Program-made: the position numbers and the translations under genes
In this document: one piece after another, positions 19,871 through 23,128 of the stretch
Layout: every line of letters starts with the position of its first letter
How positions within the stretch are numbered: position 1 is the stretch's first letter
The notes under the pieces: generated by a model
Databases searched by the model: none
The model's input: the letters and a program-made list of their open reading frames with translations, nothing else
Told to the model about the DNA's origin: nothing
From: Planktothrix sp. FACHB-1365
GTDB lineage: Bacteria; Cyanobacteriota; Cyanobacteriia; Cyanobacteriales; Microcoleaceae
Length of the DNA stretch: 29,074 nucleotides
NCBI RefSeq assembly: GCF_014697575.1
Contig: NZ_JACJSC010000008.1
Span: 1 to 29,074, forward strand
Reading direction: 5' to 3'

Positions 19871-21058
19871 TTGGCACATCAAGATTCAACAAGTGTATTT
19901 ATGAAAGTCCTGGTTATTGGTGGGGATGGCTACTGTGGTTGGGCCACAGCGTTGTATTTGTCCAATCGTGGCTATGAAGTCGGTATTCTGGATAGTTTAG
20001 TTCGACGTCACTGGGATCAACAACTGTGTATTGATACGTTAACCCCTATTGCACCGATTCAGCAACGGATTCAACGTTGGAAAGATTTAACAGGAAAGTC
20101 TATTGACCTGTTTATTGGGGATATCAATAACTACGATTTCCTGATCAAGAGTTTACTTAAGTTTGAACCGCAAGCCATTATTCACTTTGGAGAACAACGT
20201 TCTGCACCCTTCTCGATGATTGATAGAGAACACGCCGTTCTCACCCAAGCAAATAACGTTATTGGCAACCTCAACCTGTTATATGCCATGCGGGAGCATT
20301 TTCCCGATTGTCATTTGGTGAAGTTAGGAACGATGGGAGAATATGGAACCCCCAATATTGATATTGAGGAAGGCTATATTACCATCGAACATAACGGTCG
20401 TAAAGATACTTTACCCTATCCTAAACAACCCGGTAGTTTCTATCATCTCAGCAAAGTTCATGACAGCCATAATATCCATTTTGCTTGTAAAATTTGGGGT
20501 CTGCGAGCAACGGATTTAAACCAAGGCGTGGTTTATGGGGTGTTAACCGAAGAAACCGGAATGGATGAACTGTTAATTAACCGTCTCGACTATGATGGCG
20601 TTTTCGGAACGGCTTTAAACCGTTTCTGTATTCAAGCCGCTATTGGTCATCCTTTAACAGTGTATGGAAAAGGCGGACAAACTAGAGCCTTTTTAGATAT
20701 TCGGGATACTGTACGCTGTATTGAATTAGCATTAGAAAATCCGGCAGATGTTGGACAATTCCGCGTCTTTAATCAGTTTACCGAATTGCATAGCGTCGGT
20801 GACTTAGCCATGATGGTTAAAAAAGCAGGAATTGCTTTAGGATTAAATGTGGAAGTGGAAAATATTCCTAATCCCCGTGTTGAATTAGAAGACCATTATT
20901 TCAACGCTAAAAATACAAATCTATTGGATTTAGGTTTACAGCCGCATTTTCTATCTGATTCGTTGTTAGATTCGCTGTTGAATTTTGCCATTAAGTATAA
21001 AGAACGGGTTGACAACAGCCAAATTATGCCTAAAGTTTCCTGGCGTAATCCTGGTTAA
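19871..21058 (+). CDS. sqdB: UDP-sulfoquinovose synthase (sulfolipid biosynthesis)
   Basis: [20 protein letters not shown]...ILDSLVRR and the rest of the sequence match SqdB/SQD1 throughout. The real start is probably the second Met (MKVLVIGG) at about 19901. A strong hairpin terminator follows. Confidence 0.9.
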
Positions 21059-21071
21059 TTGAGGGTTATGT

Positions 21072-21119
21072 TTACTGTAGAGAAAGGTTAGGTTCTCTAC
21101 AGTAAGCTTTGGGTTTTGT
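21072..21119 (+). terminator. Rho-independent terminator after sqdB
   Basis: A 13-bp stem, TTACTGTAGAGAA (21072-21084) and TTCTCTACAGTAA (21093-21105), flanks an 8-nt loop. GCTTTGGGTTTTGT follows. Confidence 0.65.
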
Positions 21120-21153
21120 AAAGTGTTATGATATATAGCCAGGAGGTATAATA

Positions 21154-22932
21154 ATGGATGTTGTCAAAGTCTTAAGCTTAAAAAATCAGCTAATTAATAT
21201 CGTAGAAAAAATACAATTATCTCTTAGCAGTTCTGAACTTGACTCTTCTAATAGTTTGCAATTTATACAAGAAATTAAATCAGATTTAAAAGCTATAAAC
21301 ACTAAAATCAACGACGAAAAAAGAAATCATTCAGTTTTTGGTGCGCTTGATCAGTTATCGTTCATGGATGCTAATCAAGATACTGCAAAAAAAGAGAAAA
21401 TTCAATATACTAAACGCCTAGATTTAATGAATCAGATTGCTATTGATAGCGGGTTGTTATTGAATCTTGTTGAGTTACTAGAATATTACTTTGATTCTGA
21501 ACAATATCCCGTGATTAAAAATGCTCTTCGCTATTTAGTCGATATTATTTTAATTGAATTAAAGAACTGGACAGATGAGAACGATAGTACAGAATTTATA
21601 GAAAAATATGATTGGAGTCGGTTAATTGATGCTTTAATGCAGTTTGAACAATCCCTTAATTTAACCTCTGCTAATCCTTTAATTACTCAATCTGAAATTA
21701 ATATTAATTCAATTTTTGATAATTTACAAACTTACCGCTTGCGTTTAAATGAACAGTATGAGGAATTAATTCAAAGTTCCCTTGAGTTACAGCGTCAGCA
21801 AGAAGCAGAATTACAGCGTCAGCAAGAATTAGAATTACAACGCCAGCAAGAATTAGAATTACAACGTCAACAACAGGAAGAATTACAACGCCAGCAAGAA
21901 TTAGAATTACAACGTCAACAACAGGAAGAATTACAACGTCAACGGGAATTAGAATTAAAGCGTCAACAACAGGAAGAATTAAAACGCCAGCAAGAATTAG
22001 AATTACAACGTCAACAACAGGAAGAATTGCAGCGTCAGCAGGAATTAGAATTACAGCGTCAACGGGAAGAAGAATTACAACGTCAACAAGAAGCAGAATT
22101 AAAGCGTCAACAGGAAGCGGAATTACAACGTCAACAGGAAGCGGAATTACAACGTCAGCAACAGGAAGAATTACAACGTCAACAAGAAGCAGAATTAAAG
22201 CGTCAACGGGAAGAAGAATTACAACGTCAACAAGAAGCAGAATTAAAGCGTCAACGGGAAGAAGAATTACAACGTCAGCAACAGGAAGAATTGCGACATC
22301 AACGCGAAGCTGAATTAAAACAGAAAAAGGAAAAAGAAATTCGTCAGTTCATAATTATTGTGGCTGGTGTAATCTTATTAGGAGGAGTTGGACTGTTAAT
22401 TTTTAATCCTTTTAAGTCTAAGCAAGAAAATCCAAATCTTTTGACCCCAGAAACTCCTCAAAGTCGTTTAGATACGGCTGAAAAGTTAGCAGTAGAAGCA
22501 TCCAAACTCATTGAAAATCCTCCCCATCCTTTAACGGTTTGGCAACAAGCTCAAACTCAATTGCAAGATGCTATTCAGCTATTAGAAGCAATACCTAAAA
22601 ATTATTCTGACTCTGAAAAAATAAACCAAAAATTACAAATTTATCAAAAAGATTATAACTCCATTAGCCAAATTTTAAATAAAGAACAAAAGGCAACAAA
22701 TGATTTAGAATCTGCTAAAAAACTTGCTATGGAAGCATCGGTTATGCTGCAAAATCCTCCAGAATCTTTGAGTGTTTGGCAGGAAGCAGAACAAAAATGG
22801 AAACAATCTATTAATTTACTTGAATCTATTCCTAAAGATTCTTTTATTTATCCTGAAAGTCAAGATCGACTAAAAATTTATCGAACAAATCATGAAGCAG
22901 TAGCCCAAAGAAAACAGCAGAAAAATCAATAA
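21154..22932 (+). CDS. Membrane protein with a long (ELQRQQ(Q)E(E))n coiled-coil repeat and a duplicated C-terminal ~55-aa motif
   Basis: The 592-aa product has a globular N-terminal ~210 aa. About 180 aa of ELQRQQE/ELKRQRE repeats follow, then a TM helix IIIVAGVILLGGVGLLIF. The C-terminal region has two copies of the motif A.KLA.EAS.L..NPP..L.VWQ.A...W..AI.LLE.IPK. Confidence 0.8.
   Translation: MDVVKVLSLKNQLINIVEKIQLSLSSSELDSSNSLQFIQEIKSDLKAINTKINDEKRNHSVFGALDQLSFMDANQDTAKKEKIQYTKRLDLMNQIAIDSGLLLNLVELLEYYFDSEQYPVIKNALRYLVDIILIELKNWTDENDSTEFIEKYDWSRLIDALMQFEQSLNLTSANPLITQSEININSIFDNLQTYRLRLNEQYEELIQSSLELQRQQEAELQRQQELELQRQQELELQRQQQEELQRQQELELQRQQQEELQRQRELELKRQQQEELKRQQELELQRQQQEELQRQQELELQRQREEELQRQQEAELKRQQEAELQRQQEAELQRQQQEELQRQQEAELKRQREEELQRQQEAELKRQREEELQRQQQEELRHQREAELKQKKEKEIRQFIIIVAGVILLGGVGLLIFNPFKSKQENPNLLTPETPQSRLDTAEKLAVEASKLIENPPHPLTVWQQAQTQLQDAIQLLEAIPKNYSDSEKINQKLQIYQKDYNSISQILNKEQKATNDLESAKKLAMEASVMLQNPPESLSVWQEAEQKWKQSINLLESIPKDSFIYPESQDRLKIYRTNHEAVAQRKQQKNQ
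21790..22320 (+). repeat. In-frame tandem DNA repeat of 24- and 27-nt units (gaattacaacgtcaacaagaagca and gaattacaacgtcaacaacaggaagaa variants), more than 20 units
   Basis: The periodic sequence is directly visible. It encodes the ELQRQQEA/ELQRQQQEE peptide repeats of the 21154-22932 gene. Confidence 0.9.
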
Positions 22933-23038
22933 TCAGACCCTATTAACCCTCACAGGGATTCCTTTTTCCGTTCAGAAAACTTTTTTTTGAGCTTCTGTAT
23001 TTTCATTTTTGAATTTAGGATTATAACCCCATTATTTG

Positions 23039-23128
23039 TCTGATTCTTTATTAGATTCGCTGTTGAATTTGTATAAAGAACGGGTTGATCAGATCCAAAT
23101 TATACCCAAAGTGCTCAGGAATTGGGGA
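23039..23128 (+). pseudogene. Degenerate duplicate of the sqdB 3' end (gene remnant)
   Basis: A ~90-nt segment is about 85% identical to sqdB 20956-21055, with a 9-nt deletion. It translates to [25 protein letters not shown], versus [28 protein letters not shown] in SqdB. The track's 63-aa ORF (23036-23227, TTG start) is this remnant. Confidence 0.6.

Follow-up and report, generated by a model that had tools for sequence, protein, structure and literature searches.

The DNA analysed here (the window) is a stretch of 29,074 nt from Planktothrix sp. FACHB-1365. It contains an intact sqdB gene, for UDP-sulfoquinovose synthase, at 19901–21058 on the plus strand (385 aa from an ATG, assigned by protein comparison; the mechanical ORF opens at TTG 19871). 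The protein is 95–98% identical to Planktothrix-type SqdB proteins, also of 385 aa, and has a normal C-terminus, ending in KVSWRNPG and the stop codon as in its closest relatives. An identical SqdB was found only on three short metagenome contigs, and these stop at window position 21082, 24 nt past the gene and inside the terminator-like hairpin that follows it. The hairpin (21070–21107, plus strand; a predicted 15-pair stem with a T-rich tail) is kept in all the relatives compared, which are denoted here by locus numbers (L001, L004, L008, L009, L010 and L012). Beyond a spacer lies cc, a gene for a coiled-coil membrane protein of 592 aa (21154–22932, plus strand), recognized from its ORF translation and from orthologues that adjoin sqdB. 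The protein contains a tandem array, (ELQRQQ)n, with a 24-nt period at about 21784–22340, and matched no family in Pfam. Convergent with cc is a type I PKS gene (23115–28106, minus strand; 1663 aa, with KS-AT-ACP, a luciferase-like monooxygenase and TE), the first gene of a lineage-specific biosynthetic cluster. Exact look-ups of the cc and PKS proteins gave no record; the PKS is identical to WP_190518801.1 of Planktothrix sp. FACHB-1365. The GC content of the PKS region, 37–44% against 29–40% elsewhere, is not diagnostic.

Between cc and the body of the PKS gene, the first segment (22933–22955, plus strand) is post-cc sequence common to PKS-less relatives. Homology to the window ends there 1–23 nt past the cc stop codon, at 22933 in L018, 22935 in L001 and 22955 in L010; in L019 it ends at 22946. 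A 53-nt spacer follows (22956–23008), which has no significant match to sqdB or to any of the loci compared except the PKS-bearing L012 and L016. Then comes, at 23009–23112 on the plus strand, a diverged fragment of the 3' end of sqdB, called here the distal copy. The last segment, the right junction zone (23113–23144), encodes on the minus strand the lineage-specific last 10 codons of the PKS gene, LAYQPFPNS and the stop. As the earlier note on this DNA had observed, the ~2 kb bracketed by the two copies of the sqdB end holds only the coiled-coil gene.

The distal copy is identical at 88/104 aligned bases to 20924–21036, the proximal, functional copy (plus strand), which spans −135 to −22 from the sqdB stop codon. 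A repeat search of the window resolved the match into two ungapped, collinear blocks, 20924–20985 against 23009–23070 (62 nt, 84%) and 20995–21036 against 23071–23112 (42 nt, 86%), parted by a 9-nt deletion in the distal copy between 23070 and 23071. Comparison of the two copies by blastn gave E = 5.5e-22, and in a self-comparison of the whole window the repeat (E = 2e-20) was the only one outside the tandem array internal to cc. The similarity is no weaker than it had appeared by eye, and the identity of ~85% and the 9-nt deletion first reported both hold, but the span given then, 23039–23128, needs correction, as the copy starts at 23009, ~30 nt further upstream. Upstream of 23009, identity is ~40%, the background level for AT-rich DNA here, and downstream of 23112 only 10/23 positions match sqdB, which is not significant. 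Confident homology thus stops ~21 nt before the position of the sqdB stop codon, so that the distal copy represents −135 to −22 of the gene and not, as had been proposed, its extreme end. Similarly, the PKS stop codon (23115–23117) had been placed inside the copy but lies 3 nt past the confident alignment. It falls in a stretch of 21–32 nt of ambiguous origin, and the right junction zone is either the PKS gene's own tail or derives, in antisense, from the decayed final 21 nt of the sqdB fragment. The copy was also said to be translatable in the SqdB frame. This is true downstream of an in-frame TAA at 23024–23026 but not upstream of it, and the stop codon makes the distal copy a pseudogene fragment.

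The codons of the fragment are those typical of this Planktothrix subclade (gtataaagaacgggttga). It differs from the clade consensus at 12 sites, distributed 4/2/6 over the codon positions, a pattern that fits neutral decay of a native-type sqdB end. With respect to the proximal copy there are 16 substitutions, 10 of them at third codon positions against ~46% expected, and these sites are too few to separate the models. The identical runs of 20 nt (20966–20985 = 23051–23070) and 18 nt that remain between the copies sit on strongly conserved codons and are expected in a gene fragment of 85% identity. One may ask whether the distal copy has been retained for a function, be it as a bidirectional terminator or spacer between cc and the PKS gene, as an antisense or regulatory RNA, or as the 63-codon ORF that passes through it (23036–23227). 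The copy does sit exactly between two convergent genes and is 98–99% identical across three species, but this conservation is no greater than that of the adjacent spacer and PKS gene; furthermore, no terminator-like hairpin is predicted in the copy and no Rfam element was found. The ORF opens with TTG, runs antisense to part of the PKS gene and is simply a continuation of the remnant sqdB frame, and the substitutions relative to the clade consensus are distributed among codon positions as neutral decay would predict. Functional retention is therefore very improbable, and we read the distal copy as the decaying fossil of an sqdB 3' end that has no function.

P. tepida PCC 9214 (L012) and P. mougeotii LEGE 06226 (L016) carry the same scar next to the PKS gene, with cc on its other side in P. 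tepida and degraded remnants of cc in P. mougeotii. The scar shares with the window the TAA, the 9-nt deletion and both junctions, at 98% identity over 298 nt, and hence had a single origin in the common ancestor of the three lineages; its position between cc and the PKS gene in these species identifies it as the left border of the PKS cluster. Elsewhere in the window, 3089–7740 matches P. mougeotii at 96% identity. On its left, the scar has its junction between 23008 and 23009, where no more than a single shared T is seen. On the right, DNA homology to the PKS gene of Dolichospermum ends at 23145. Tails differ among all the PKS homologues, and LAYQPFPNS with its stop is common to all five Planktothrix PKS proteins, that of P. 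pseudagardhii having the same junction-derived tail. Metagenome contigs were scanned for the exact pattern of the junction of fragment and PKS gene, in search of an sqdB–PKS intermediate, with 0 matches; such a scan is narrow, as even P. mougeotii differs by one base.

Comparison with other relatives separates the histories of the two genes on either side of the scar. Orthologues of cc adjoin or lie near sqdB in L001, L008, L009, L010 and P. tepida. In L001 and L010, whose contigs run past cc, the gene is present with neither the distal copy nor the PKS cluster, and in L018 too cc lies beside or near sqdB with no distal copy. The gene after cc in the PKS-less L010 and L018 is one of 657 aa. 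The divergence of cc from its orthologues runs parallel to that of sqdB, so that nothing in it points positively to import of cc from another strain. The earlier suggestion that cc arrived by horizontal insertion is contradicted by these loci, which have the same arrangement and no empty site, an outcome that the earlier note had itself named as speaking against it; cc is an ancestral, conserved neighbour of sqdB and not cargo. For the PKS/EamA region the suggestion fares better in part. The cluster is lineage-specific at this locus, being missing from L001, L010 and L018, and it is found in Dolichospermum and on unrelated metagenome contigs as well. The corresponding empty site, with sqdB followed directly by the PKS gene, did not emerge, and among the relatives compared no genome had sqdB directly abutting the PKS gene or convergent with it.

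The spacer between sqdB and cc is itself variable. Homology to relatives breaks at 21107 (L008 and L016), 21119 (L004, L009 and L010) or 21133 (L012) and picks up again at 21136, and within this interval (21107–21136) ten loci hold one of four kinds of cassette or none. P. tepida has PD-T4-10 A and B (PADLOC, E = 1e-35 and 1.5e-34); L008 and P. mougeotii have an AAA_21 gene plus a DUF4276 gene, HEC-01/AbiL-like (PADLOC HEC-01/AbiLi); L004 has a PtuA/AriA-like ATPase plus a weakly AriB-like protein (PADLOC); L009 and L010 have a phycobilisome-like gene plus a gene of 162 aa. The interval is empty in the window and in L001. With its conserved flanks, strain-specific cargo and matches to defence families, the spacer is a swap site of two-gene cassettes, three of the four kinds of which are defence-like. 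Variable-gene and defence hot spots are flanked by conserved core genes, and the sqdB/cc spacer with its lineage-specific cassettes resembles them in this. The likeness concerns the neighbourhood and not the scar, which is situated one gene beyond the spacer, where a biosynthetic cluster borders on it. The scaffold cpeT-sqdB-(cassette)-cc is conserved, and its surroundings are exchanged often among Planktothrix lineages.

An intact sqdB with a truncated duplicate of its 3' end downstream, on the same strand, is the structure expected from displacement of a 3' end, and two further loci have one of their own. In L004, the last 45 nt of sqdB together with 61 nt of spacer recur after a different cassette, and behind them stand 84 nt left over from the L010-type cassette (the 162-aa gene). 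In L019, cc is followed by 105 nt and then by a 41-nt sqdB fragment (−225 to −185; 93% identity to sqdB of L010), fused to the spacer that normally follows sqdB and to a phycobilisome-like gene that is degraded and internally deleted. In both, the DNA after the fragment is the usual follower of sqdB. The topology recognized in the earlier note, an intact gene with a new 3' end and the displaced old end downstream, has thus been met in independent cases, and its reading of the duplicated, diverged end as a recombination scar is borne out.

The particular process that was first proposed is another matter. Islands mobilized by an integrase enter the 3' end of a tRNA or protein gene, replace it and leave attL/attR scars, and an intact gene, a segment and a degenerate direct copy of the gene end do make up that classic topology. 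The 20-nt and 18-nt identical runs could be viewed as parts of such sites, and in L004 too a duplicated sqdB end flanks a cassette. However, no integrase or recombinase was found in the bracketed 2 kb, which carries only cc, or in a scan of the ORFs of 6600–19842 and cc. The ORFs of 6600–19842 are phytase-like, TPR, NB-ARC/STAND, kinase, M23-RTX, DUF218 and CpeT; to the right of the bracketed segment is the PKS gene, and a search of the window for tRNA genes was negative. Furthermore, the independent scars start at −225 (L019), −135 (the window clade) and −45 (L004) from the sqdB stop codon and have no crossover core in common; the window and L004 scars overlap only from −45 to the stop. The boundaries of the spacer cassettes vary as well, cc adjoins sqdB ancestrally in lineages that have no scar, and the empty site is missing. 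An integrase-driven entry of an element bearing cc is largely refuted by this evidence and we regard it as highly unlikely. In sum, the observation in the earlier note is confirmed and its interpretation is partly supported.

We put at about even chances that the distal copy is a remnant of homology-driven recombination and marks the junction on the left side of the PKS cluster, the structure having been produced in two steps whose order and polarity we infer. In the first, which we place in the ancestor shared by the FACHB-1365, P. tepida and P. mougeotii LEGE 06226 lineages, the PKS cluster would have come to abut an sqdB 3' end about 21 nt short of the stop codon; by analogy with L004 and L019, the cluster may formerly have lain directly after sqdB in the lineage of the window. 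In the second, an intact segment comprising the sqdB 3' end, the spacer and cc would have been joined upstream of the damaged sqdB end, coming either from a related strain or from a sister chromosome copy, the cell being polyploid. On the left the join would have used sqdB/cpeT homology and on the right it would have been illegitimate (76 nt past cc to −135 of sqdB), much as in homology-facilitated illegitimate recombination or single-crossover integration of a circularized fragment, and would have needed no site-specific recombinase. The outcome would be an intact sqdB followed by cc, with the old sqdB end displaced beyond cc and fused to the 3' end of the PKS gene, and the displaced end would since have decayed through a stop codon, the 9-nt deletion and about 11% substitutions. 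Against this history, sqdB lacking its last 6 codons may or may not be viable, the microhomologies at the junctions are too short for diagnosis, and the same structure would be produced by an incoming sqdB fragment with the PKS cluster or by a tandem duplication followed by PKS insertion.

In the first of these alternatives the polarity is reversed. The sqdB fragment would be a passenger at the end of an incoming PKS cluster, whose donor, a related Planktothrix, had the cluster immediately after sqdB; the homology anchor would be on the right, far side of the cluster, and the left end would have been joined illegitimately 76 nt past the resident cc. This agrees with the constant company of fragment and PKS cluster, the fragment being missing in PKS-less genomes, with the Planktothrix-type sqdB end that the fragment resembles, with the lack of a phylogenetic sign of import in cc and with the status of the downstream side of sqdB as a demonstrated landing hot spot for foreign DNA. 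Searches by tblastn and blastn found no sqdB remnants beside distant PKS homologues (Dolichospermum, L013; JGI contigs, L014 and L015), which argues against a remote donor of the fragment. The alternative nevertheless requires an unobserved donor lineage living with an altered sqdB end, and in L004 and L019 the DNA after the fragment is an ancestral-type cassette, which is more simply taken as resident DNA. We therefore consider it unlikely.

The second alternative, that the region from −135 of sqdB to 76 nt past cc was doubled by unequal crossing-over and the PKS cluster then inserted 114 nt into the second copy, the rest of which was deleted so that the duplication was stabilized, seems to us equally improbable. 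It would yield exactly the observed junction of post-cc sequence and sqdB 3' end and make a damaged sqdB intermediate unnecessary, and the substitution pattern fits two copies that started out identical. L019, with its sqdB fragment, spacer and internally deleted phycobilisome-like gene, looks like a decaying second copy. On the other hand, such a duplication is unstable, so that the PKS cluster would have to land in a second copy of 2 kb within a short time. It leaves unexplained why the fragment ends so near the sqdB stop codon, and in L004 the first and second units hold different cassettes, for which duplication alone is insufficient.

The two-step history has counterparts in known systems. 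The arrays of displaced 3' ends in T6SS effector-immunity and rhs/CDI loci have been proposed to originate by homology-facilitated illegitimate recombination, the displaced ends remaining downstream after a homology-anchored insertion (Kirchberger et al. 2017, PMC5361080, citing Jackson et al. 2009 for rhs and earlier work on the process in Acinetobacter, S. pneumoniae and P. stutzeri). As in those arrays, the conserved 5' part of the gene would serve as the anchor, incoming DNA would bring a new 3' end and new downstream genes, and the old end with its downstream genes would be pushed back, orphaned, in the same orientation; the absence of an integrase, the variable breakpoints and the three independent events at the sqdB locus are also alike. 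The anchor here, however, is a housekeeping gene of lipid synthesis with an invariant C-terminus where the arrays have a polymorphic toxin, the ends displaced at this locus are short (41–106 nt) and do not code for protein, the cargo comprises defence cassettes, a coiled-coil gene and a biosynthetic cluster in place of toxin-immunity pairs, and the polarity of the event in the window is one that we infer. In single-crossover integration of truncated circular molecules, experiments gave direct duplications of 109–950 bp of the homologous segment on the flanks of the insert (Amarir-Bouhram et al. 2011, PMC3240628). There too one-sided homology inserts foreign DNA, and the topology and size range of the duplications match the window. 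Those were laboratory events with plasmids or short linear DNA, whereas the event in the window is reconstructed from comparative genomics and is old (about 11% neutral decay). The likeness to attL/attR scars, by contrast, ends with the intact gene, the segment and the degenerate direct copy, for no integrase was found among the ORFs scanned, there is neither a tRNA gene nor a fixed crossover core, the breakpoints vary among loci and the bracketed gene is ancestral.

The scar is of an ordinary kind, at an interesting locus. In itself it is an inert pseudogene fragment with no functional consequence, yet it dates and delimits the arrival, in one Planktothrix clade, of a widely distributed, uncharacterized cluster with a fatty-acyl-AMP ligase, desaturases and the PKS; a Planktothrix genome comparison (PMC5259702) makes no mention of sulfoquinovose or desaturase genes. 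Together with the two parallel scars, it indicates that accessory DNA here turns over by homology-anchored recombination and not by a dedicated mobile element. A more general and tentative possibility is that the sqdB 3' end is a recurrent homology anchor in Planktothrix, at which modules of sqdB end, cassette and cc are stacked before older ones with no integrase involved. If true, displaced sqdB ends would accumulate in a row, along with the cargo that once followed them, here including a whole PKS cluster, and the displacement logic of rhs and T6SS loci would extend to a housekeeping gene, giving a polyploid cyanobacterium a way to keep both old and new accessory genes. The sqdB/cc spacer, for its part, is a compact and easily typed swap site of defence cassettes in a bloom-forming genus, and could serve for strain typing and for the study of phage defence turnover in natural populations.

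The window's sqdB gene is intact (19901-21058, + strand) and is followed on the same strand by a gene for a 592-aa coiled-coil membrane protein (cc; 21154-22932), beyond which lies a convergent type I PKS gene of 1663 aa (23115-28106, - strand). Between cc and the PKS gene, a repeat search of the window recovered a second, diverged sqdB 3' end as two ungapped, collinear blocks, 20924-20985 against 23009-23070 (84% identity) and 20995-21036 against 23071-23112 (86%), which are separated by a 9-nt deletion in the distal copy. Proximal and distal copies agree at 88 of 104 aligned bases (blastn E = 5.5e-22), and a self-comparison of the entire window found no other dispersed repeats. 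These searches confirm the diverged downstream repeat and its 9-nt deletion as an earlier note had described them. The extent is different: the copy starts 30 nt 5' of the coordinate given there, and confident homology stops at 23112, 21 nt before the equivalent of the sqdB stop codon. The copy had also been described as a still translatable sqdB end, but it is interrupted in frame by TAA at 23024-23026 and is a pseudogene fragment.

The distal fragment looks like a Planktothrix-type sqdB end. It has in common with the subclade formed by the window and metagenome contigs L005 and L006 an 18-nt stretch, gtataaagaacgggttga, and at four positions it retains the clade consensus from which the window's own sqdB has departed. 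Its differences from that consensus (12 of 104 sites) are spread 4/2/6 over the codon positions, as neutral decay predicts. The C-terminus that the proximal copy gives to SqdB is also that of the closest homologues (95-98% identity), and there is no sign that the fragment had a remote donor.

Loci from ten further sources, fetched via homologues of SqdB, cc and the PKS, were compared with the window. Directly or past a small cassette, cc lies downstream of sqdB in Planktothrix sp. GU0601_MAG3 (L001), a Lake Mendota Planktothrix MAG (L010), metagenome contigs L008 and L009, and P. tepida PCC 9214 (L012); P. mougeotii LEGE 06226 (L016) keeps two cc remnants. Neither the distal sqdB copy nor the PKS gene is present in the L001 and L010 loci, where homology to the window stops 3 and 23 nt, respectively, past the cc stop codon, and in L018 the gene after cc is the 657-aa one also seen in L010, with neither fragment nor PKS gene. 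Because it adjoins sqdB in several lineages, L001, L010 and L018 being without scar or PKS, cc is by its distribution a conserved and ancestral sqdB neighbour, not att-bracketed cargo. The suggestion that it was foreign, horizontally inserted DNA is thus contradicted by relatives with the same sqdB-cc arrangement.

The (ELQRQQ)n array of cc has a 24-nt period (window 21784-22340) and a copy number that varies by lineage (L001 11900-12544 and the L012 and L010 equivalents), the proteins being 592, 599, 616 and 656 aa long. Across the array the window and P. tepida are 62-73% identical, against 96-97% before and 97-98% after it, a drop due to copy-number gaps. The C-terminal domain past the TM segment contains two internal repeats, between which P. 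mougeotii is deleted.

Alignments with relatives break off at 21107, 21119 or 21133, right after a conserved, terminator-like sqdB hairpin (21070-21107), and pick up again at 21136, where conserved sequence leads up to cc. They show that two-gene cassettes are exchanged within the 95-nt sqdB/cc spacer, at window 21107-21136. P. tepida carries PD-T4-10 A and B there (PADLOC E about 1e-35), L008 and P. mougeotii carry AAA_21 plus DUF4276 (HEC-01/AbiL-like), L004 a PtuA/AriA-like ATPase with a weak AriB-like protein, and L009 and L010 a phycobilisome-like gene with a 162-aa gene; no cassette is present in the window or in L001. The P. mougeotii and L008 cassettes are 89.7% identical, and the flanking cpeT-sqdB region 85.8%. 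The window's empty spacer is probably a deletion, because its post-sqdB spacer is common to P. tepida. In L001, the 5' leader of the L009/L010 phycobilisome-like gene precedes the cc start codon (L001 11219-11346 vs L009 3310-3365), as though a deletion from start codon to start codon had removed the cassette and the cc upstream region; this cc is apparently frameshifted near codon 25. Metagenome contigs L005, L006 and L007, from different runs and with an SqdB protein identical to the window's, all stop at the base corresponding to 21082, within the terminator hairpin of sqdB (21075-21102), which could reflect an assembly break at the palindrome or graph branching from strain polymorphism just downstream.

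The PKS protein of the window has the same sequence as WP_190518801.1 (Planktothrix sp. FACHB-1365). P. tepida and P. mougeotii have the same fragment, TAA, 9-nt deletion and left and right junctions as the window, the scar being 98% identical over 298 nt and flanked by cc, or what remains of it, on one side and by the PKS 3' end on the other, and the P. pseudagardhii PKS has the same lineage-specific tail, LAYQPFPNS. It follows that the fragment arose once, in the ancestor of the window/P. tepida/P. mougeotii clade, and that it delimits the PKS cluster on the left. This cluster encodes a fatty-acyl-AMP ligase, desaturases, the PKS, EamA, a fatty-acid hydroxylase, GCS2, a glutaredoxin and an FAD oxidase. 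Dolichospermum (PKS 80% identical) and unrelated metagenome contigs have the same cluster, with no sqdB near it in either, which fits horizontal acquisition. The Dolichospermum PKS stops matching at the DNA level at 23145, and every PKS homologue has a different tail, which makes the 21-32 nt separating the fragment from conserved PKS sequence ambiguous in origin. The suggestion that the PKS/EamA region possibly arrived by horizontal insertion is supported in that the cluster is lineage-specific, occurring with the scar and being absent at this locus from L001, L010 and L018; a site-specific route for it is not supported.

Between the PKS gene and EamA, P. tepida has an insert of ~1.4 kb with an IS605-type TnpB (OrfB_IS605/Cas12f1-like_TNB; L012 8634-9869, equivalent to window ~28228) that the window and P. 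mougeotii are without. At 1624 aa the P. mougeotii PKS is shorter than the window's (1663 aa), and an alignment gap around window 25922-26124 suggests an in-frame deletion in an inter-domain region.

Two further scars were found at the locus. In L004, sqdB is followed by the ATPase cassette, a 106-nt copy (the last 45 nt of sqdB and 61 nt of spacer) and an 84-nt remnant of the 162-aa gene, a member of the cassette that directly follows sqdB in L009 and L010. In L019, cc is followed by 105 nt of post-cc sequence and a 41-nt sqdB fragment (-225 to -185 from the stop codon; 93% identical to L010), which is fused to post-sqdB spacer and an internally deleted phycobilisome-like gene. There were thus three independent events, with breakpoints -225, -135 and -45 nt from the sqdB stop codon, and in the two readable cases (L004 and L019) the displaced fragment precedes what normally comes after sqdB. 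No integrase was present among the ORFs scanned (cc and those at 6600-19842), and no tRNA gene or Rfam element was found. Together with the variable breakpoints, this largely rules out a site-specific recombinase, and the reading of the copy as a site-specific integration footprint is abandoned.

A conserved element of ~45 nt with a small hairpin (ATTCCCC-N8-CGGGKAAC) occurs once per locus, after cc in L010 (11902-11951) and L018 (1100-1140) and, in L004, immediately before the displaced end of sqdB (4569-4609); it is absent from the window. Its local alignment scores are 41-50, against <=23 for shuffled sequence, and it could be either a terminator following cc or a short element that recurs where modules end.

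The window matches P. tepida as a mosaic, at 96-98% identity for the most part and at 82-91% in patches, the 3' half of sqdB among them, which fits recombination tracts ending in sqdB. Between a phytase-like gene and cpeT, an 11.4-kb segment (window 7741-19209) carries genes for three NB-ARC/STAND NTPases, two adjoining TPR-only proteins, a Ser/Thr kinase-TPR protein, an M23 peptidase with RTX repeats and a DUF218 protein. P. tepida has at least the part of it from 14200 onward; the segment is absent from L001, L004-L010 and P. mougeotii, the last of which has an NYN gene instead. The window self-comparison found no repeats flanking it.

The scar reads as intact gene, new downstream segment, displaced truncated 3' end and, by analogy with L004 and L019, putative old downstream content. 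The same topology is seen in the displacement arrays of rhs, CDI and T6SS, where it is ascribed to homology-facilitated illegitimate recombination (PMC5361080), and it is produced by experimental single-crossover integration, with 109-950 bp duplications of the homologous segment (PMC3240628). The history that we prefer, and to which we give roughly an even chance, has two steps. The PKS cluster would have come to abut an sqdB 3' end, and an intact sqdB-cc segment would then have been joined upstream of that end, by homology on the left and by an illegitimate join on the right (76 nt past the cc end to sqdB -135). The segment would have come from an uninterrupted sister chromosome copy or from a related strain; cyanobacteria are commonly polyploid. 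The same final structure would result if the fragment and PKS cluster were the incoming DNA, anchored on the far side, which we consider unlikely, or if a tandem duplication came first and the cluster was inserted into the second copy, which also strikes us as improbable. Third codon positions account for 10 of the 16 proximal-distal differences, counts that do not separate these competing histories.

The earlier reading is supported in part: the copy is a scar of recombination in which a 3' end was displaced, and the lineage-specific DNA is the PKS cluster. Site-specific integration and a foreign cc are not supported. On the sequence comparisons, the feature is a fossil of an ordinary kind, at a locus of unusually active, integrase-free turnover.
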